A stretch of DNA of 64,000 nucleotides from Scenedesmus sp. PABB004. Lineage: Eukaryota. The notes beneath the pieces were generated by a model, which worked only from the letters and a program-made list of their open reading frames with translations, did not search any database and had not been told where the DNA came from. Where the stretch lies: assembly GCA_014905635.1 (NCBI GenBank), contig CM026548.1, positions 1,178,001-1,242,000 of the forward strand, written 5' to 3'. The position numbers and the translations under genes were made by a program. This document shows, piece after piece, positions 1 to 54,771 of the stretch (position 1 is its first letter; each line of letters starts with the position of its first letter).

Positions 1-1078
1 GGGGACGGGCGGGTCGGCGGTCCACGGCCGCCGCATGCTGTGCGGCGCGCCAACACGAGCGTGCGCGCGCGCGCGCGCGCTCACCGATGTGCATCGCCGC
101 GTACGGCACGCAGGTCATCTCGTTGTGCAGCACAACTTCCTGGTTCGTCTGGTTGTCTGTGCAGTCCAGCTCTGAGTCGGAGGAGCCGTCCCCCGCGCTG
201 TCCACCCAGAGGGGATCATCGTCGTCCTCTTTTTCGCTCGGAGCAGACGTGGTGGCGCCTGCAGCGGCTTGGAGCCCCGGCGCCTGCGCACCGTCGTCGA
301 CGCCACCGTCCAGGCTCATGTCCTTGTAAGCCAGCGCCAGCGCCAACGCGGTGTCGCCTGCGCGCGGCGGGGCTGAGCGCGTGCGGCGGGAGCGGGCGCG
401 GCGCGCGGCGCCAGCGCCGCGCCGGCAGCGCCGCGCGCCGGCAGCGCGCCGCCGCGGCCCCGGCGCCTGCGCACCGTCGTCCGCGTCGCCGCCCTCGGCC
501 ATGTCGGCGTACGCCATCGCCACGGCCAGCGCGGTGTCGGCTGCGGCGGCCCTCAGGGTCAGCGCGGCGGGAGCGCGGCGTGCGGCGGCTGCGCGGCGCC
601 GCCGCGGCCCGGCGCCTGCGCACCATCGTCGACGCCACCTTCCAGGCTCATGTCCTTGTAAGCCAGCGCCAACGCGGTGTCGCCTGCGCGCGGCGGGGCT
701 GAGCGCGTGCGGCGGGAGCGGGCGCGGCGCGCGGCGCCAGCGCCGCGCCGGCAGCGCCGCGCGCCGGCAGCGCGCCGCCGCGGCCCCGGCGCCTGCGCAC
801 CGTCGTCCGCGTCGCCGCCCTCGGCCATGTCGGCGTACGCCATCGCCACGGCCAGCGCGGTGTCGGCTGCGGCGGCCCTCAGGGTCAGCGCGGCGGGAGC
901 GCGGCGTGCGGCGGCTGCGCGGCGCCGCCGCGGCCCGGCGCCTGCGGAACGCACCATCCTCGGCCTCTTCTGCCGTCACGGCGTGCGGGTAGCTCTCCTC
1001 GCCGGGCTGGCCGGCCACGACAAGCAGCAGCAGCGCCAACGCTGTCAACACGCATGCGCGGCACGGGGAAGCCTCCAT
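1..1078 (-). CDS. Secreted protein with four acidic ~21-aa repeat exons (3' end runs off window)
   Basis: ATG at 1078 gives MEASPCRACVLTALALLLLVVAG (signal-peptide-like). Phase-1 GT-AG exons encode ADTALAVAMAYADMAEGGDADD and GDTALALAYKDMSLEGGVDD twice each, then SEKEDDDDPLWVDSAGDGSSDSELDCTDNQ...YAAMHI before a GTGAG donor near 84. Confidence 0.6.
   Translation of the reverse strand, partial: MEASPCRACVLTALALLLLVVAGQPGEESYPHAVTAEEAEDGAFRRRRAAAAPRSRRTPRSRRADPEGRRSRHRAGRGDGVRRHGRGRRRGRRCAGAGAAAARCRRAALPARRWRRAPRPLPPHALSPAARRRHRVGAGLQGHEPGRWRRRWCAGAGPRRRRAAAARRAPAALTLRAAAADTALAVAMAYADMAEGGDADDGAQAPGPRRRAAGARRCRRGAGAARRARSRRTRSAPPRAGDTALALALAYKDMSLDGGVDDGAQAPGLQAAAGATTSAPSEKEDDDDPLWVDSAGDGSSDSELDCTDNQTNQEVVLHNEMTCVPYAAMHIGERARARARSCWRAAQHAAAVDRRPARP
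279..945. repeat. ~330-bp tandem duplication (two exons plus two introns per unit)
   Basis: Near-identical copies at ~279-610 and ~611-945. The period is 332/326 bp because of a 6-bp indel. Confidence 0.92.
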
Positions 1079-45358: not shown

Positions 45359-46560
45359 TCAGATCGGCCCCGCCTGCAGCGGGTTCATCGCCGCGCCCGC
45401 CATCGCGTTCATCTCCAGCAGCCGCTTCTGCTGCTGCATCTGCTCGTCTGCGCCGCGCAGAGGCGGCGGCGGTGGCGGCGGCGCGGGCTCGGCGGCCGCG
45501 CTCGGCGGCCGCGCGGCGCGCGGCGCGCGCCCCCGCGGCGCTGGCAGCGGCGCGGCTCGCCCCGCTCACAGATGCCGAGCTCCCGCGTCACCGCGCCCTG
45601 GAACACGAGCAGGATGAGCGTGAAGAGCATGAAGCCCACCGCGACTGCGGCGCGCGGGCGCGGCGGCCGGTCAGCGACGCTCAGCTCGGGCGCTCGCGGC
45701 GGCGTGCTCGCCGGCGCCCCCGCGCGCGGGCCGCGTCCCCCCGGGCTCGCTGGTGCCCCCTCCGACAAATGCGGCGCGCACCGATGTAGCCGAGGACGTA
45801 GGTCGCTCTGAACGCGCCGGTCATCACCGCCGTCCAGCCCGCGGCGGCGGTGAGCTGCGCGTCGACGGTGGAGCTGAACCCCTGCATCACGAGCGCGGCG
45901 AGGAGGCAGAAGAAGCTCATCACGAATGCCCAGGCCACGGTGAAGCCGTAACCGAAGCCGGGCCCAGCCTTGGTCATCGACTTGCTGCGCGCGCGGGGGA
46001 CAGAGTGGCGCACGACGGCAGCCGGCTCGGCGCGCCGCGGCCGCGTGCGAGCGCCCTGCGCCCTGCGCCCTGCGCCCTGCGCCCTGCGCCCTGCGCGCTG
46101 CGCCCTGCGCGCTGCGCGCTGCGCGCTGCGCGCTGCGCCCTGCGCGCTGCGCCCTGCGCCCTGTGCCCTGCGCCTGCGCCTGCGCCCGCACCGGATGAGC
46201 ACGAAGCAGGAGGTGAGGTTGAAGAGCACCACCATGAGGCCGCCGAGCGTGCAGGCGGCGATCGGGGCGCGCCAGATGTTGTTGCTGATGAACGCTCGCG
46301 CCGTGGACTTGGCATCCGTCCACGTCGCGATATGGAGGTTGCCCGACGCGTTGGCGAGGTTGGCCGCCGTGGCCCAGGCCATGATGACGTACACCGCGTC
46401 CACGAGCTGGCAGCAGGGAAGGGGGGAGGGCGGAGGGGAGGGCGGCGGGCGGCTGGGCGACGCGGCTGCTGGCGCGCCGCGCCGCAGGGCGCAGGCGCAC
46501 CAAGTTGGCGCTCCAGAAGCTCCAGAGGCAGATGCGCTTATACTCGCCCGGCACCGCCAT
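45359..46560 (-). CDS. Four-TM membrane protein of unknown function
   Basis: Five in-frame exons: MAVPGEYKRICLWSFWSANL / LVDAVYVIMAW...LTSCFVLIR / KSMTKAGPGFGYGF...YVLGYI / VAVGFMLFTLILLVFQG / ...NPLQAGPI*. Confidence 0.75.
46052..46190. repeat. Intronic heptamer tandem repeat (GCGCCCT/GCGCGCT)n
   Basis: Direct reading. Confidence 0.85.
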
Positions 46561-46854
46561 CGTGAGGCGCGGGGCGGCCGCAGCGCGGCGCGGGAGGGCC
46601 GGCGCAGCAGCGGCGCTCGCTGCTCTCTGACGTGCGCGGGGTCGTGCGGTCGCTGGGCTGCGGCTGTGGCTTGTCGAGAGAGCGGAATGCGTTCGTGGAG
46701 CTGTGCGAGAGCCTGTGGGCAGGCGCGGCAGGCGTGGAGGCGTCGGGGAGCCAGGTCGCAAAGTGTTATTGTTGACCCCCGTTGACCGCTGGCTCCGTGA
46801 CCCCGCCAGGCCGCCCTGCGCATTCGACGCTTCGCCAGAGCACGCGCCCCCGCT

Positions 46855-47476
46855 CCCCGCTCACCGGCAGGCCGGCGTCGGCGTCCAGCGCGATGCGCGG
46901 CGGCGCGAGTCGCGCGTTGCGGCGGCGCGCCCCCGCGCTGCTGGTCAGCGCCGTGTGGCGGGTGTGCGAGAGCGCGGCCAGCGCCATGGCGGGCGGCCTG
47001 GGGCGGTGCGGTGCGGGTGCGGGCCGGGGGGTCGGTCCGGGACTGGGCGGCCCCGCGGCCGGGCGGCGGGCTGGGCGGGGCGCACAGGGCGCGCGGAGAG
47101 CCCTGCCACGTTGGATGGGTGACCGCCGATGCGCGGCCCGCGCGCCCCCCGCGCCGGCGCGTCTGGGCGCACGCGCCGCGGCCGAGCCGCACGCGGCGCG
47201 CGGGACCCGGCCGGCGCCGGGTCGCGCGGTGCGGGGTGGCGCGATTGATGACCGCGCCGCTGCGGCGCGCCCGGGGTGCTGCGCCGCCCAGGCGCTGCCG
47301 AGGATGGTCACACGCGCCACCCGCAACGCTCCCGCGCCGCCGCCGGGCCCGCCCGCGCCGCGGCCCCCGGATGCCTGCTGGGGGACAGGGTGGAAGCCGC
47401 GCGCGCCGCGCGGCAGCGGCCGCCGCCCCACGCGGCGCGGCGCGGCCGGCTCACGGCGCGCCCGCCGCCACGCCCG
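46855..47476 (-). repeat. Left arm of a long inverted repeat (partner 52394-53048)
   Basis: Reverse complement of the right arm apart from a few substitutions, a G-run difference and a ~28-bp tandem duplication present only in the right arm. Confidence 0.95.
46865..46987 (-). pseudogene. Orphan duplicate of exon 1 of the 52916-54771 gene
   Basis: Encodes MALAALSHTRHTALTSSAGARRRNARLAPPRIALDADAGLP followed by a GTGAG donor. The rest of that gene is absent on this side. Confidence 0.75.
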
Positions 47477-50400
47477 CGCCTGCCAGCACGCCGTCCAGCA
47501 CGTCGCGCACCGCCGCGCAGCCGCCGCCCGCGCCGCCGTTCGCGGCGGCGAGCAGGGCGTCGAGGCCCAGCTGCCCCCGCTTGGCGCGCTCGTAGAGCGC
47601 ACGCGTGGCGGCGCGCAGCGCTTCGCTGTACTGCTCGCGGCCCACGCGGCGCGCCTCGAGCAGCGGCGCGAGCCGCGCCTTGGCCGCGCTGTGCGCCGCG
47701 AGCTTTGCCTGCTTCAGCGCGTCGGCGCTCAGCGCCGGGGGCCTCGCCGCGGGCAGTGGCGGGCTCGACGGCGCCGCAAACGCGACCTGCTGTGCCTGCT
47801 GCTGCTGCTCTGGCGCGCCGGCGGACGCCCCCGCTGTCGCTGCGCCCGGCCACTGCTGCTGCAGCGGCGGCGGAGCCGAGTGCGGGGTTGGGTCCCACTG
47901 CGCTGGCTGGCCCTGCACCGCGCCCGCGGCCTCGCCGCCGGCCGCCGCAGCTGCGAGGCCGGTCGCGCTCGACGCTGCGCTGCCGGCGCTCGCGCCTGGG
48001 AAGTGCTGCCACACACCCGGCGGGCCCGGCCCGCCGCCGCAGCTCGGCCCAGCCGGGAGCAGCTGCGGCTGCGGCAGCCACGGCGGCAGCCCGCCTGGCG
48101 CAAAACCGCTCGCCAGTTGCTGTGCCGCGCCCGGTGCCACGCCCTGCCACGCCCTGCCCAGTGAACCCTGGGGCTGGGCCTGCGCCGCCAGCTGCTGCTG
48201 TGACGCCGGCAGCTGCTGGAGCGCCGGCAGCTGCTGCTGGAGCGCCGGCAGCTGCTGTGCCACTGTCTGCTGCTGTGCCGCGGTCTGCTGCTGCTGGGGC
48301 GCCTCGCCCGGCAAGCCAGGTGCGGGCCGCAGCTGCGCCATCATCAGGCGCTGCTGCCAGCTCTGCGGCTGCCCCAGCTGCTCCCGGTCTGGCGGGGGCG
48401 CAGGCGCCGCCGGCCCAAAGAACCTGCTGCTTGTGCCGCCTGCTCGCGCAGCGTCGTGGCGCCCGCGCTCCTGCTGCTGCGACGGCTGCAACCGCTGCTG
48501 CTGCGACGGCTGCCCGGATCCGTTCACGCCCGCGGCTGCCGCTGCTGCCACGCCGCGCCGCACCGCCCCCAGCGTGCGCACCGAGCGCGGCAGCGAGCGC
48601 AGCTCCTGCCGCCCGCCCTGGCCGCCGCCGGCCGCAGGGCCCGAACTCGACGTCCGCGTGATGCCGGCCGCGCTGCCGCTGGCGTTTGACAGCCACCGCC
48701 CCAGCAGGCTGCTGCTGCCGGCGCGCCAGCCCTCCGGGACCTGCTGCCGCCGCAGCGCCGCCGCCACGCCGAGCTCGAGCCGGCTCGGCGGCGCGGCCGC
48801 CGCCGCCGCGCCGGCGCTGCCGCCGCCGCGGGCGGAGCCCGCTGCGCCGCTGCCGGCGCGCGCGAGGCTCGCCCGGCGGCGCTGCTCCTCGCCCCGCTCC
48901 CTGGCGGCTGTCACGCCGTCTCGAATGCTGTCCATCCAGCCCGGCTCCGCGGGGTCGGCCGGCTCCACGCGCGACGCTGCCAGGTCACGCTGACGCTGCA
49001 GCCGCGCGAGCAGCGCCGCGCGCAGCTGCGCCTCGCGCTCGCTGGGCGCGGCGGCGGAGCTGGGCGGTGCCGCCGCCGTAGCCTGCGCCGCGCTGCCGCC
49101 TGCGCCGCTAGCAAAGTAGCTGCTGGTGACGCGGCGCTGGCCGCCGCTGCTGCCGCCGGCGCCGCCCGCTGCCGCGGCGCCGCGCGCCGCGCGCCCGCTC
49201 CGGGCCCTGCCGCCGCCGGCTGCGCCTGCGGCCTCCTGTCGCACCAGCTCCAGCGCGCGCCACGCCTCCTCCTCCGAGCCGGGCGCCCCCTCCGGCGCGG
49301 CCGGCGCCGGGCGGTCGCGCGCAGCAGCGGCGCCCGCCGCCGCCGCCCGGCCGCCCGCCGCGGCAGGCGCGCCCGCTGTGGCCTGGCTGCTGCTGGCGGA
49401 GCCGCCAGCCTCCTCCTCGTCCCGCAGCTGCTGCCACGTGCGCAGCCGCGGGTCAGGCGGAGGCCCCGCAGCACCAGCGCTGCCGCCGCGCCGCGCCGCG
49501 CGGCCGTTGCGGCCTGCTGCCCGCGCCCTGCTGGCGCTGCGGCGGCCGCCGCCGCTGCCCACGCCCGCGCTCGATGCGCCGCGTCGCGGGGCGCGCGCGC
49601 TGCGCGACGCGCTGTGCGGCAGCTGCCCCTCCTCGTCCTCCTCCTCATCCTCCTCACCGTCCTCTGCATCGTCGCTGCTGCTGCTGCGCCCCTCGCTCGC
49701 GTCCTGCGAGCCCAGCAGCTGCGCGGCGTCGTCGTCGTCCGCGTCGCTCGGCTCGGCGTCCGAGTCCAGCAGCGTCAGGTCGATCGGCTCCCCAGCAGCA
49801 GCTCCAGCCCCACCGCCGCCGCCGGCGGCGGCGCGCCGCAGCCGCGCGCGGCCGGGCACGGCGCGGCCGGCCGCCGCCGGCGCCGCGCCCTGGCGTCCCG
49901 TGCGGCGCCCCGCCCCGCGCGCGCGCGCGCGGCGCGCCGCGTCGGCCGCCTCTGCCGCCTCGCGCTCGCGCACAAACTGGGCGACGCAGTCGGGGCAGAA
50001 CCAGTCGTCGAGCGGCACGGTGCTGCAGTTGACGCAATAGGTGTGGTACCCCTGGTCGCAGCCTGCGGTTCAGGCGGGGGCGGGCGCGGTCACGCCGCGC
50101 GCACGCGTGAGGCTCGCTCGCGACGGCGCGCGGGGCTGGGCGCACCGCCGCCCACACACACACACACACAAATACGCACCGTCGCAGATGAGCAGCTGCT
50201 CCTCGTCCTCGTCGCCGCCGCACACGGCGCAGCGCAGGGACTCCAGGAACGCGAGGCTCGCGGCGTCGGGGACGTAGACCTGGTCGCGCGGCGTCCGGTA
50301 CGTCCGCGTCTCCAGCGCCGCGCCGCCCACCCGCCCGCGCGGGCTCTCCGCGGCCCCGCCCTCGCCGTCGCCGCTGCCGTCGCTGTCGCCGCTGCCGGCG

Positions 50401-50681
50401 CCGTCACTGCCAGCGGCGCCGTCACCGCGGCTGCCGGCGCCGCCGTCGCCGCCCGGGCCGGCCCGCCGCCGGCGCTTCGCTGGGCGCTGCTGTTCCTGCG
50501 CCCCGCCGCCGCGAGCCCGCACGGCCTTGCGCGAGAGGGTGGTGAAGCGGGATTTGCAAAAGGGGCAGCGAGTCTCGCGGTCGGCCCACGTAGTGATGCA
50601 CGGCCAGCAGAACTCGTGTGCGCAGCAATCCAGCTCCCCCACCTCCTCCACGCGGTCGTAGCAGATGCCGCACTCCGCCAT
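47451..50681 (-). CDS. RING plus PHD finger protein with C-terminal helical domain (PHRF1/SCAF11-like)
   Basis: C3HC4 RING CGICYD...CAHEFCWPCI...CPFC; PHD CAVC...LLICD/GCDQGYHTYC...WFCPDC; long low-complexity middle; C-terminal AKARLAPLLEARRVGREQYSEALRAATRAL. Confidence 0.87.
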
Positions 50682-51168
50682 GCGTGCGTCGGCGGCGAGG
50701 TGCTGAGCGTGTGTGCGCCCGCAGGGGCGGCTGCGCGGTCGCCGCTGTCGGCGCGCGCGCCCCCGGCAGCGGCGAGCGCCGCCCGCCTGGCGGGGGCGGG
50801 AGGGCGCGGGGAGGGCCGTCACGGCGCGGATGTGGGGGAGGCGGCGGAGTGTGCCGTGCTGCGGGCGGGCGGCGGCGAACTTGAACCGCCGTCGGCTCCT
50901 GAGCTCGCCCCCTCATCTCACTCACAACAAATCGTCTCAGAGGAGCGACAGCACCAGCAGCGGCACCACCACCAGAGCAGCAGCAGCAGCAGCAGCAGCG
51001 GCAGCAGCGGTTGGATGCTGCCGTACGCCGCCGGCGTCGCCGTCTGATGCTCGTCGTCCTCGTCGCCGGCTTGGCCGTAGCTCGCGTCGTCGTCTACGCG
51101 GGCGGCCGCATCGAGAAGCTGCAGGTCTGAGCCGGAGCGGGGCCCGGCGCGAGCAGCGGCAGCAGCAG

Positions 51169-52299
51169 ATGGGCTGCTTCCCCAGCCGCCCGGAGGGGCA
51201 ACACTCGGGCGCGCTCGCCGCGCTGCAGAACCAAGTGCGCGCGCTCCAGCAGCAGCTCGCCCAGGGCGGCGCCGGCGCCGCGTACGCGGCGCCCGTGGTC
51301 CACGGCGGCGGCGTGGCCGAAGTGCTGTTCTTCCCCGACCCAGCGCTGCCCTGCAACTACGGCGCCAACTGCCGGCGCCGCAACTGCACCTTCGCCCACG
51401 AGGCAACGAGCCTCGGGAGGTGCGCCCTGTGGTGCGCTGCGCACCAGCGGGGGCCGCGCGGGGCGCGCACCGAGCGGCCGCTGCGCCGCGCAGGCTGCTG
51501 CACATCCTCGCCGGCGCGCGGGCGTCCATCGACGTCTGCGTGTTCACGATCACCTGCGACGACATCGCCAACGCGCTGCTCGCCGCGCACGGCCGCGGCG
51601 TGCGCGTGCGCGTCATCACAGACAACGACCAGGTGATGATGGTCTGGTACAACGCCGCGGTGCCGTTTGTCCCCCTCTCGCCCTCCGCCCCGTTGGCCCC
51701 ACGGGCGCTGCGCGGCGGGCCGGCGACGGCGCCGAGGGGGGGCTGCGTCTGACCCGTCTGACCCGCCGCCGCCGCCGCCGCGCCGCGCCAGGCCGCGACG
51801 CAGGGCAGCGACATCGCGCGCCTGCGCGCGGGCGGCGTCGCGGTTGAGACCGACAGCGACTCGTTCCACATGGTGGGTGGGTGGGTGGGTGGTGTGTGTG
51901 TGTGTGTGGGGGGGGGGGGCTGCGCCGCCGCGGCGACCCTGGCCTCGCGCGTGCCGCCCGTGCCCGCCGCGACCGCGCCGCCGACCGCGCCGCCGACCGC
52001 GCTCAACCCAACCCACAATCAAAGCACCACAAGTTTGCCGTCCTGGACGGCCGGCTGCTGCTCAACGGCTCCTTCAACTGGACGCGCCAGGCGGTGCTGA
52101 GCAACCAGGAGAACGTGGTGCTCACCGACCACCCGCTGCTGGTGAGGGGGCGCCCGCGCGGTCGGCGCCGCCCACCGCGCGGCGCGGCCCGCCCGCGCGC
52201 GCTCCAGCCGCGCCCGGCCGGCCGCCGCCGCAGGTGTCGCGCTTTTCCCAGCAGTTCGAGGCGCTGTGGCGCAAGTACGCCGCGACGCTGCGCAAGTGA
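51169..52299 (+). CDS. PLD6/MitoPLD/Zucchini-like single-HKD phospholipase/nuclease
   Basis: EVLFFP, CCCH insert (CNYGANCRRRNCTFAH), SIDVCVFTIT, RGVRVRVITD, HM/HHKFAVLD (HxKxxxxD), NGSFNWT, NQENVV and FEALW. Confidence 0.9.
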
Positions 52300-52393
52300 G
52301 AGGCTGTTGGCGCGACCGGCGCCGGGCGGCGCGCGCAGCGCTCGGCGCGGTCGCGCGCGCTGCGCCAGCAGTGTAGACTCTGGCTGACTGGGC

Positions 52394-53048
52394 CGGGCAT
52401 GGCGGCGGGCGCGCCGTGAGCCGGCCGCGCCGCGCCGCGCGGGGCGGCGGCGGCGGCCGCTGCCGCGCGGGGCGGCGGCGGCGGCCGCTGCCGCGCGGCG
52501 CGCGCGGCTTCCACCCTGTCCCCCAGCAGGCATCCGGGGGCCGCGGCGCGGGCGGGCCCGGCGGCGGCGCGGGAGCGTTGCGGGTGGCGCGTGTGACCAT
52601 CCTCGGCAGCGCCTGGGCGGCGCAGCACCCCGGGCGCGCCGCAGCGGCGCGGTCATCAATCGCGCCACCCCGCACCGCGCGACCCGGCGCCGGCCGGGTC
52701 CCGCGCGCCGCGTGCGGCTCGGCCGCGGCGCGTGCGCCCAGACGCGCCGGCGCGGGGGGCGCGCGGGCCGCGCATCGGCGGTCACCCATCCAACGTGGCA
52801 GGGCTCTCCGCGCGCCCTGTGCGCCCCGCCCAGCCCGCCGCCCGGCCGCGGGGCCGCCCAGTCCCGGACCGACCCCCGGCCCGCACCCGCACCGCACCGC
52901 CCCAGGCCGCCCGCCATGGCGCTGGCCGCGCTCTCGCGCACCCGCCACACGGCGCTGACCAGCAGCGCGGGGGCGCGCCGCCGCAACGCGCGACTCGCGC
53001 CGCCGCGCATCGCGCTGGACGCCGACGCCGGCCTGCCGGTGAGCGGGG
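52394..53048 (+). repeat. Right arm of the long inverted repeat
   Basis: Carries a stub of the RING-PHD gene 3' end (GMAAGAP*), its downstream region and exon 1 of the next gene. Confidence 0.95.
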
Positions 53049-54771
53049 GCGGGCGGGCGGGATCGGTGCTCCAGACCTTTGCTACCACGCCGCGTGGCGC
53101 GCGAAAAGCTTGCCACGAGGCGCTCAGAGCTGGGCAGCCGCGGTCAGGTCGCCCTCGCGACCGGCGCGCCGGCAGGGGCGGCCCTGGCGCGGCGCGGGGC
53201 GCGGCCATCTCGGGCGCGCTGCCGGCCGTGGTCAGCGGCGCGCCTCAGGCCCGGGCCAATGGCGCGGAGGCATGGGACCCTATGGGAGCAGCCTTAGCGA
53301 CGCGGCCAGGCATCGGAGCGCGCCTGATTGCGCGGCCCGGGCGATGTAGTAGGGGCGCGCCCTCCGCGCTCAATTGCCGCGCGCTCGCCGCCCGCAGGCC
53401 GGCCCGGCGCCACGGACGACCTCGTCGCAGCAGCCCGCCGCGCGCCTGCAGGAGCTCTGGCACGCCGGCGCGCCGGCGCAGCAGCAGGCGCCCGCCGCCG
53501 CCGCGCCCGACGCCGCCAGCTGGGCGCGCGCGGGCGAGACGGAGCTGCAGCCCTGGGCGGAGCGCCTGCTGCGCCAGGTCTCGGCGCTGCCCAGCGGCCG
53601 CGGCGCGCTGGTGCACCTGCTGCTCGCGGCGCAGGGCGTGCTCGCGGCCGCGGAGCGCGCGTGCCCGAGCCGCGCGACCACCGCCGCTGCGGAGGCGTAC
53701 CTTCACCTGGCACTCATCGACATCATCGCCCAGGGCTGGCGGCAGCGCATGGCCGAGCTGCAGGCGCTGCAGGACCGCATCCAGCAGGTGCGGCAAGCGG
53801 CAAGCGGCCGGGCGGGCGGGCGGGCGCGCGCGCCAGCTGCCGCGGCGCCGCGCCGCGGCGGGCCCCGCGCGCGGCGCTCACGCCGCCGCCGTGTCGCCGC
53901 ACGCGCGCGCGCAGGACGCGGCCGCCGCGCGCGCGCGCCCCGGCTCGGCACGCGCGCCCGACCCGTCGGCGCTCGCTGGCGTGTCGCGGCAGGCGCTCGC
54001 AGCGCGCATGTCGCTGGCGGGGTGCCGCTACCTTCGCATCGAGGCGGCCAAGGGCCTCGCGCGCCGCGTGCACCAGCTGCTGGACGGCGAGGGCCACGCG
54101 CCAGGGCTGGACCTCGATGCGCTGCCGCAGGTGCGCCCGCCGCGCCCGCGCGCCGCGCCGGCGCAGCCCGTGCGCCCGCGCCGGCGCCCGCGCCTGACGG
54201 CCCCCCGCCGCCGCCGCCGCCGCCGCCGCCGCCCCGCGCGCGCCCTCAGCCGCACACCACGGGGCTCAACTTTGGGTCCCTGCTGGAGAGCCGGCTCGGG
54301 CTCGACCTCGCGTCGCCCGCGCCGCTCCGGTCGGCGCCGGCGGCGTCGCTCGCGGGGCTGAGCTGGGACGACTACCACGCCGCGTCGACCGACCCGGGGC
54401 TGCAGGCGGACGAGGTCTGCCACTTCTGGAACAACACGGCGAGCCTCGTGCCCGCGCCGCACGCCAAGTTCAGCACTGCGTCGCTCGCGGCGCACCTGGG
54501 GCCCGAGCTCGTGCTGAGCAGCCTCCCCAACGGCGTGTGGGGCCGGGCGCTCGTCGGCGCGGCGATCGAGGTGGGCCTGGTGCTCGACGCCTGGGCGGAG
54601 CAGCCCGCGACGGTCATGGCCGCCGCGGGGTCGATCGGCAGCGCGAGCGGCTGGCTCTGGGTCGAAGCGCAGCTCGGGCTGCAGGGCAAGCTCACCGACA
54701 TGCGCCAGCTCGCGCTCTCGGTCGCGGCGGCGGCGGTGACGATGCTGCAGGCGCAGCAGCAGCAGCAGTGA
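52916..54771 (+). CDS. Hypothetical protein with transit-peptide-like first exon
   Basis: Exon 1 52916-53038 splices in phase 0 to 53398 (AGPAPRTT...RLQELWH...). Later exons give YLRIEAAKGL and HTTGLNFGSLLE...WLWVEAQLGL; stop at 54771. Family not recognised. Confidence 0.72.

Follow-up and report, generated by a model that had tools for sequence, protein, structure and literature searches.

A 4.9-kb block carrying a PLD6-like gene and a RING-PHD gene in Scenedesmus sp. PABB004 has probably undergone a recent local inversion, which would have duplicated ~620 bases at one breakpoint. In the window, the whole 64,000-nucleotide stretch of DNA that was analysed, the block is enclosed by two inverted arms composed of two-copy host sequence, and each arm is needed by a different gene.

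The inverted arms and their gene content

The features of the locus are as follows.

45359..46560, minus strand: the flanking gene A, encoding a membrane protein and possessing a conserved first exon of its own at 46560-46501
46843..46860, minus strand: left outer junction, read from the sequence, with the 7-base unit GAGCGGG present twice
46855..47476, minus strand: left arm, comprising the end of the RING-PHD gene with its stop (in use), spacer, and a duplicate of exon 1 of gene B with its donor
46865..46987, minus strand: spare gene B exon 1, 41 codons with a phase-0 GTGAG donor, directed toward gene A
47451..50681, minus strand: RING-PHD gene, ~1037 aa, exons 50681-50180 and 50062-47451, with RING Pfam matches
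51169..52299, plus strand: PLD6-like gene (mitochondrial cardiolipin hydrolase), 217 aa, 5 exons, PLDc_2 at E 3.9e-30
52394..53048, plus strand: right arm, with a dead RING-PHD tail copy, spacer with a 34-base tandem gain, and gene B exon 1 and its donor (in use)
52399..52419, plus strand: RING-PHD tail stub MAAGAP*, its ATG derived from the substitution at 52399
52916..54771, plus strand: gene B, ~416 aa, exons 52916-53038, 53398-53787, 53915-54130 and 54250-54771

The near-perfect reverse complementarity of the arms, reported in a preliminary description, was recovered at the same coordinates. Arm-versus-arm alignment over 621 bases revealed three transitions (0.5% substitutions), a 1-base indel and the 34-base tandem gain. 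The inverted pair breaks into segments of 406 nt (100%), 176 nt (99%) and 78 nt (90%), and is by far the strongest in the 64-kb window, where the second-ranked pair has just 91 nt at 71%. One substitution in the exon (46965/52938) places a His codon against an Arg codon, a second is found at 47430/52440, and the third (47471/52399) creates the ATG of the stub. The left arm has one additional G at 47026, and the gain occupies 52452-52485 of the right arm. The His/Arg codon, the G/A difference and the G-run of the preliminary description hold, whereas its ~28-bp duplication measures 34 bases. In both coding substitutions it is the predicted dead copy that carries the A/T base, a weak pattern that arises by chance in one of four cases. 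Homogenisation of the arms by exchange, as in a flip-flop inversion between the repeats, may show in a 392-base identical run, which has p ~0.04 given five differences; errors clustered near the junctions would mimic this.

It is very unlikely that the arms are an assembly artefact in which a single-copy stretch was placed twice. Their 99.5% identity would suit such an artefact, and the left arm and the two new junctions are uncovered by the sequencing records listed, a gap that in itself proves nothing. However, the three transitions and the tandem gain are spread over both arms and go beyond short indels, and they argue against a pure artefact, as had been claimed. Moreover, comparable pairs reach 6% substitutions, and the join of PLD6 to the arm would have to be invented and yet leave all four frames intact. 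The records come from two runs of one study (DNA contigs, word shares of 0.15 and 0.09), were placed at 85% likeness, and consist of short low-depth contigs and short near-identical pieces. One record of 226 bases extends across the right outer junction (53011-53239, with 38 letters in the arm), and is uninformative on the models because this junction exists under every one of them. Record joints with sides of 20-28 letters were discarded as noise.

Each arm contains the last seven RING-PHD codons and stop, a spacer of ~460 bases and gene B exon 1; the stop had been assigned correctly before, with ~8 codons in place of the seven found. A genome search gave two full-length copies among the 56 arm matches listed (40 of 61 candidates scored), the remaining 54 being GC-rich simple sequence of 36-203 nt at 69-93% identity. 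The N-terminal stretch of RING-PHD and PLD6 (50181-52300) and the last exon of gene B are single-copy in the assembly. The earlier assignment of the arm to host sequence rather than a transposon end is upheld by the gene parts and the two full-length copies among the matches listed. Terminal inverted repeats of a transposon carrying two captured genes would fit in arm length and in the 4.9-kb interior, which lie in the size range of such elements, but this reading is highly improbable: the arm has just two full-length copies among those matches and consists of parts of genes, two host genes fill the interior, and no direct repeat common to the outer flanks, as expected of a target-site duplication, was found by reading the sequence at the outer borders.

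Among the genes of the locus, the RING-PHD gene is PHRF1/SCAF11-like. PF00628 is annotated on the public model P0026, which includes this gene, and the C-terminus gives a SCAF11-like_C/SRI atlas lead with a score of 0.93, the family being found in under half of the members. The PLD6-like gene has 174 relatives at E<=1e-40 in a search confined to proteins under 349 aa. Gene B matches no Pfam family and is alga-specific, its named relatives coming from Scenedesmus and Hariotina, and the closest of them, P0002, is a stand-alone 311-aa protein. Gene A yields a MARVEL-like lead only (score 0.85).

Dependence of two genes on the two copies

The RING-PHD gene depends on the left copy and gene B on the right copy. 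The RING-PHD stop (47453-47451) lies seven codons inside the left arm and the stub (52399-52419) remains in the right arm, in agreement with the preliminary description. The seven tail codons have a mean coding score of 0.21, equal to the 0.21 of coding sequence, although this is weak evidence, being reached by 28 of 433 null windows from the non-coding part of the arm. Prolonging the RING-PHD frame into the left outer flank gave scores of -0.21 to -0.26 in all six joins tried. Of the two alternative arm frames, one runs 55 codons and the other has no stop within the arm. The TGTAA polyadenylation signal showed no enrichment in 862 kb (ratio 1.12). For gene B, 40 of the 41 codons of exon 1 (52916-53038) end in G or C, and a GTGAG donor follows in both arms. 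Intron 1 contains four ATGs, two of them in frame with exon 2; gene B requires the arm exon because both of these hit a stop before exon 2.

Since the RING-PHD gene needs the left copy and gene B the right one, the two were probably former neighbours and the 4.9-kb block was inverted; we infer both the inversion and its direction. The ancestral order would have been A(-), PLD6(-), RING-PHD(+), B(+). The duplicated piece would have taken in the RING-PHD stop along with the spacer and exon 1 of gene B, and a second break would have fallen in the interval from the gene A promoter to the 3' end of PLD6. After the event, RING-PHD would end in the left copy and gene B begin in the right copy, both remaining whole. 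All four genes keep open frames, as had been noted earlier. A function for the structure itself is improbable.

An inverted templated copy without inversion is an unlikely alternative. Here the order was always as it is now, and 620 bases, taken from the region upstream of and including gene B exon 1, replaced the RING-PHD end and happened to supply a stop. Local copying is common in this genome (a mosaic at C2:1154365-1155103, and 605 bp copied in direct orientation at C2:939140), and the break lies past the RING-PHD C-terminal domain, where damage would be tolerable. Nevertheless, this reading requires coding-like codons by chance together with an in-frame stop by chance; a stop within eight codons occurred in 8 of 437 random entries into the non-coding part of the arm, in a test that ignores survivor bias. 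The original RING-PHD end must also have been deleted, and the left flank is non-coding-like in 6/6 joins.

Relatives, similar pairs and known inversion scars

Scanning metagenomes with gene A yielded two loci (L091 and L092; 2.2 and 2.9 kb) from 115 candidate stretches. A counterpart of the gene A first exon opens both (2/2), and neither PLD6 nor RING-PHD was matched beside gene A in L091 or L092; the upstream neighbour is an unrelated gene in L091, and none is visible in L092. The gene B relative P0003 is fused with a glycosyltransferase-like region rather than with RING-PHD, which counts against the inversion. A search with the RING-PHD C-terminus among 8000 candidates found solely this genome's own protein, and no PLD6 and gene B matches from one same genome were present among the relatives found.

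Elsewhere, the assembly contains comparable inverted pairs of unique sequence with 1-6% substitutions, which support the inversion. Apart from this locus, four unique inverted pairs of host DNA were found in the 982 kb sampled, three of them with spacers of 4.2-5.0 kb; the fourth (C1:2098k, 95 bases at 88%) is a weak candidate. Tandem arrays, perfect palindromes, families of at least three copies, matches below 80 bases and direct pairs were left out of the count, and two nested C1 pairs were scored as a single event. A 1.3-kb pair at C2:1142k belongs to such a multicopy family and was dropped. Three of the other events were followed for gene continuity; in each, a single arm is clearly connected with a functional gene, so their status as inversions is putative. 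One of the four, nearby on the same contig at C2:1154365-1155103, is pieced together from 88, 210 and ~410 bases drawn from three sites 5-7.5 kb distant and mixed in orientation; a simple staggered break cannot produce such a three-fragment mosaic, which favours template switching there. A host gene at C2:939140-942680 lies between the copies of a direct duplication of 605 bp, showing that local copying without inversion occurs in this genome.

A pair on C1 bears on a two-step origin, in which a longer inverted duplication was followed by loss of the redundant genes so that the arms remained and the outcome equals an inversion. The inverted copy at C1:2037324-2038612 retains just the start and end of a 4-kb gene, the remnant expected from such a course. 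Even so, two steps are quite improbable here, as the 0.5% arm substitutions leave little time, and no second PLD6 or RING exon remnant was found.

Under the preferred inversion, the duplication may have arisen in two ways. Template switching of the FoSTeS/MMBIR type is able to leave an inverted block flanked by a duplication, along with short templated pieces at the junctions. This agrees with the 7-base repeat of the left junction, where homology with gene B intron 1 may extend ~11 bases more, and with the C2:1154k mosaic. However, significant microhomology is absent at this locus, the 7-base match between the two flanks being equalled in 23% of 2000 random pairs. Inversion from a RING-PHD/gene B adjacency, as put forward in the preliminary description, is favoured by the internal evidence; the staggered break invoked there is indistinguishable from template switching because both yield the same product. 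We regard replication/repair template switching and staggered-break fill-in as about even, slightly favouring the former.

The locus is probably a further case of the inversion scar known from Drosophila (PMC1885836), and a tidy one in that the duplication itself spared two genes. That breakpoint duplications are established for Drosophila inversions is confirmed by that study, which explains them by a staggered-break model: in the melanogaster group, inverted duplications of unique sequence were found at 17 of 29 inversions, with a median of 321 bp and a maximum of ~1.9 kb, 12 of 18 being at one breakpoint only. There, the duplications are likewise non-repetitive host DNA, including partial genes, opposed at the block ends, and their size and one-sidedness agree with the arms here. 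The Drosophila inversions were proven against outgroup genomes, whereas ours draws on internal evidence; the arms are 99.5% identical here (block 4.9 kb) compared to an average of 88% in Drosophila; and each arm here, unlike there, gives a working part to a different gene (PMC1885836).

As for green algae, a Chlamydomonas reinhardtii study describes Dualen LINE insertions with target-site duplications of median 900 bp, so that widely staggered nicks do occur in a green alga, and one de novo 5.2-kb inversion (PMC9977147). The non-TE inversion breakpoints in its mutation lines, with short deletions and no homology, count against the preferred reading; in addition, the duplications in that study flank an element, and the inversions are mostly transposon-linked, with no transposon at our locus (PMC9977147). 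In Scenedesmus obliquus UTEX 3031, of the same family, inter-haplotype inversions have a median of 3,672 bp, and inversions on the kilobase scale are thus nothing unusual in these algae, while the available text describes no breakpoint duplications (bioRxiv 10.1101/2022.11.30.518549). The accessible portion of PMC13315243 holds nothing on inversions, and no report of breakpoint duplications in green-algal nuclear genomes turned up among the papers listed in our literature searches, supplementary inversion tables aside. Scars of this kind seem to be frequent in this genome, which is compact and very GC-rich, and this makes the breakpoint mechanism and the odd 4-5-kb spacing testable. The gene-sparing events would be the survivors in such a genome.

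Public protein models and the spare exon

The public model P0001 joins PLD6, the arm exon and gene B, and P0026 joins RING-PHD, the arm exon and gene A. Both are probably wrong, and the finding marks them as probable chimeras fused through the duplicated exon. If they were right, the spacer would be an intron, the arm exon would be internal, and two fusion genes would have had their halves exchanged by the event. In favour, the joins of P0001 and P0026 keep the reading frame and have GT-AG borders, and the sequence before the ATG resembles a splice acceptor. Such fusion genes are nonetheless very improbable: P0026 omits the gene A first exon, which is conserved in relatives; PLD6 relatives occur as short proteins (in a search under 349 aa only); P0002 is a protein in its own right; and the proposed donors are merely G-TGA-G at stop codons.

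The use of gene B exon 1 in the right arm stands as earlier described, whereas the left copy is possibly not the orphan it was called, because it can be joined in frame, by splicing, to the second exon of gene A (the 46560 gene). A joint reading, which we consider doubtful, combines such splicing with an active genome-wide process of inversion with a preferred block size near 4-5 kb, in which 300-650 bases at the edges of genes would be duplicated; on this reading ~160 such scars (95% range 44-417, extrapolated from the four other events in 982 kb) would exist in the genome, and the spare promoter would serve gene A too. If so, gene A would gain a new N-terminus in which Ala, Arg, Ser and Thr abound and acidic residues are absent for 34 residues, features that resemble a transit peptide.

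Structure of the locus and its inverted arms

The locus lies in G000:C2:1178001-1242000 (G000, the 40-Mb, 80-contig assembly; C1, C2 and C13, contigs), a window with a GC content of ~79%.

Features of the locus from left to right (window coordinates)
45359-46560, minus strand, gene A, a membrane protein gene starting at 46560
46855-47476, left arm
50681-47451, minus strand, RING-PHD gene, between the left arm and the PLD6-like gene
51169-52299, plus strand, PLD6-like gene, between the RING-PHD gene and the right arm
52394-53048, right arm
right arm to 54771, plus strand, rest of the alga-specific gene B

Over 621 aligned bases, the arm at 46855-47476 is the reverse complement of that at 52394-53048, apart from three transitions, a 1-base indel and a 34-base tandem gain in the right arm relative to the left. 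The next-best inverted pair anywhere in the window reaches at most 91 nt at 71%, which bears out the near-perfect inverted repeats of the preliminary description. These two are the only full-length arm copies among the matches listed for the assembly. A transposon end was rejected as the locus fails its tests, in keeping with the earlier view of the arms as host sequence.

In the direction of gene B, the arm opens with seven codons and a stop; ~460 bases of non-coding sequence follow, then an exon of 41 codons with a GTGAG donor. The right-arm exon splices in phase to 53398 (gene B exon 2). Gene B needs this exon, since none of the four ATGs in its first intron could replace it and the alignment of its relatives begins at exon 2. 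Gene A does not, as both of the two related loci have a first exon like 46560-46501. On the left, a stop ends the RING-PHD frame seven codons inside the arm, directly behind a domain similar to the SCAF11-like/SRI C-terminus (an atlas lead). All four frames are open, as expected from the claim that every gene was left intact. The gene B family lacks annotation (24 representatives, no Pfam match in the B-like part, window 52916-54771), and those of its members that have names come from Scenedesmus and Hariotina. Separately, inside a minus-strand gene at window 276-962, two exons are repeated by a head-to-tail duplication whose period is 326 bases and in which 285 bases in a row are 100% identical.

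The public protein models P0001 and P0026, assigned by their source to Scenedesmus sp. PABB004, are identical letter for letter to window exons. Near-identical pieces from two metagenome runs of one study differ from the window at 3 of 1650 letters (X1, five records) and 8 of 1594 letters (X2, seven records), excluding four records with alignments of just 43-52 letters. A single record reaches across the right outer junction, a junction present under all models; the junctions that an inversion would have created are covered by none of the X1 and X2 records found. The arms diverge by 0.5%, roughly equal to the within-species differences in these pieces, which suggests a recent duplication that may still differ from strain to strain. 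The kind of differences between the arms, together with their spread, makes an assembly artefact very unlikely.

Probable former adjacency of the RING-PHD gene and gene B

If both the RING-PHD end and the gene B start are native to the arm, these genes once lay side by side, and the block that the arms enclose was turned round. The gene B side of this argument is firm. On the RING-PHD side there are three tests: a stop inside the first eight codons, seen from only 8 of 437 random entry points; the codon score of the tail, which equals the coding mean, whereas all six joins tried to the left flank give non-coding scores; and the comparison with the arm's own non-coding part, from which the tail separates weakly (28 of 433 windows reach its score). 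Both coding substitutions between the arms sit in the predicted dead copy. Among the relatives compared none confirmed the order, and the two loci related to gene A carry neither PLD6 nor RING-PHD. Taken together, the evidence within the locus indicates that the block was probably inverted in one step. The ancestral order A(-), PLD6(-), RING-PHD(+), B(+), which adds gene A to the order proposed earlier, is favoured by the stop, codon-score and gene B exon evidence, one of the three RING-PHD tests being weak.

The locus behaves like the duplications that accompany inversions in Drosophila, sharing two of their defining features, and is probably a further case of this known kind. Inversions between haplotypes of Scenedesmus obliquus UTEX 3031 have a median of 3,672 bp (bioRxiv 10.1101/2022.11.30.518549), so kilobase inversions are ordinary in this algal family. 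Our literature search, covering sources in part, found no inversion scars of this type in green-algal nuclear genomes. The parts worth following are the recurrence of such scars and their spacer size.

Similar events elsewhere and possible mechanisms

Self-alignment of 982 kb (2.5% of the assembly: C2:800001-1462000, C1:2000001-2200000 and C13:1000001-1120000) revealed four further events with unique inverted pairs, none of them in the C13 stretch.

Further events (L-numbers, retrieved stretches of DNA; gene names read from translations, not search matches)
G000:C2:867371-872493 (L057-L058), C2:867k event, promoter and exon 1 of a glycosyltransferase-like gene, spacer ~4.3 kb
G000:C2:1154365-1155103 (L026:4365-5103), C2:1154k event, three-fragment mosaic that looks like serial template switching, spacer 4.8 kb
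G000:C1:2028024-2038612 (L073-L074), C1:2028k-2038k event, beginning and end of a single RING gene, 5.0-kb inner spacer
C1:2098k event, short and old, spacer 12 kb

The C2:867k duplication is two-copy and inverted around a block of three genes, and the C1:2028k-2038k inverted copy is limited to the start and end of a 4-kb RING gene, beyond a 5-kb two-gene block. Four arms taken from the first three events each have two full-length copies genome-wide. Substitutions between arms of the sampled events range from 1.0 to 6.2%. Extrapolation from the 982-kb sample gives ~160 events in the genome (44-417). Spacers of 4.2-5.1 kb occur in three of the four further events sampled, with a post hoc p of ~0.001 under the spacer models tried and a small n.

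If a staggered break where RING-PHD meets B were filled in, and the other break, between PLD6 and A, were near-blunt, the present structure would arise in one step, as PMC1885836 describes for inversions with staggered-break duplication; a two-step route is very improbable. The junctions contain a 7-base repeat, and a search there for significant microhomology found none. The same product would result if a tract of replication or repair changed strand and later returned. The insert of the C2:1154k event combines pieces of 88 (direct), 210 and ~410 bases (both inverted) from three sources 5-7.5 kb away, to which they are 94-99% identical, one deriving from the interior of an unbroken gene. As this is beyond the reach of a staggered break, template switching probably acts in this genome. 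Moreover, a 605-base direct duplication of promoter and first exon brackets a small cysteine-rich host gene (G000:C2:939140-942680; L064-L065), resembling a very long target-site duplication but without an element, so gene-edge copying occurs without inversion too. For the PLD6/RING-PHD locus itself, plain inverted copying without inversion is unlikely, and a one-step inversion is preferred.

Other repeats were observed in the sample. A 172-base unit forms two arrays of 8.5-9 kb with an identity of 98-99% (G000:C1:2003777-2012272 and C2:1439240-1448121); both lie near copies of a common 280-400-base sequence, and there is a reverse-transcriptase match at C1:2015670. At G000:C2:1303351-1388593, a 3-kb element bounded by direct terminal repeats of ~400 bases occurs five times within 85 kb, its copies being 81-86% alike. 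A 1.3-kb inverted pair (99%, 1-kb spacer) at G000:C2:1142297-1146034 has a third copy 31 kb off at 1110185-1111989 (89-91%).

Possible flipping of the block and public gene models

The anatomy of the locus suggests that the block would turn over, with all frames kept, if the arms recombined; the 392-base identical run between them is borderline as a sign of exchange (p 0.04). The left arm carries a spare promoter and exon that face gene A and are in phase with its exon 2. A transcript of gene B exon 1 joined to gene A is a possible candidate. P0001 (636 aa, window 51169-54768) splices PLD6 to gene B through the arm exon, and P0026 (1274 aa, window 45362-50681) splices RING-PHD to gene A in the same way, omitting the conserved first exon of gene A. 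Both are probably chimeric gene models arising from prediction errors.
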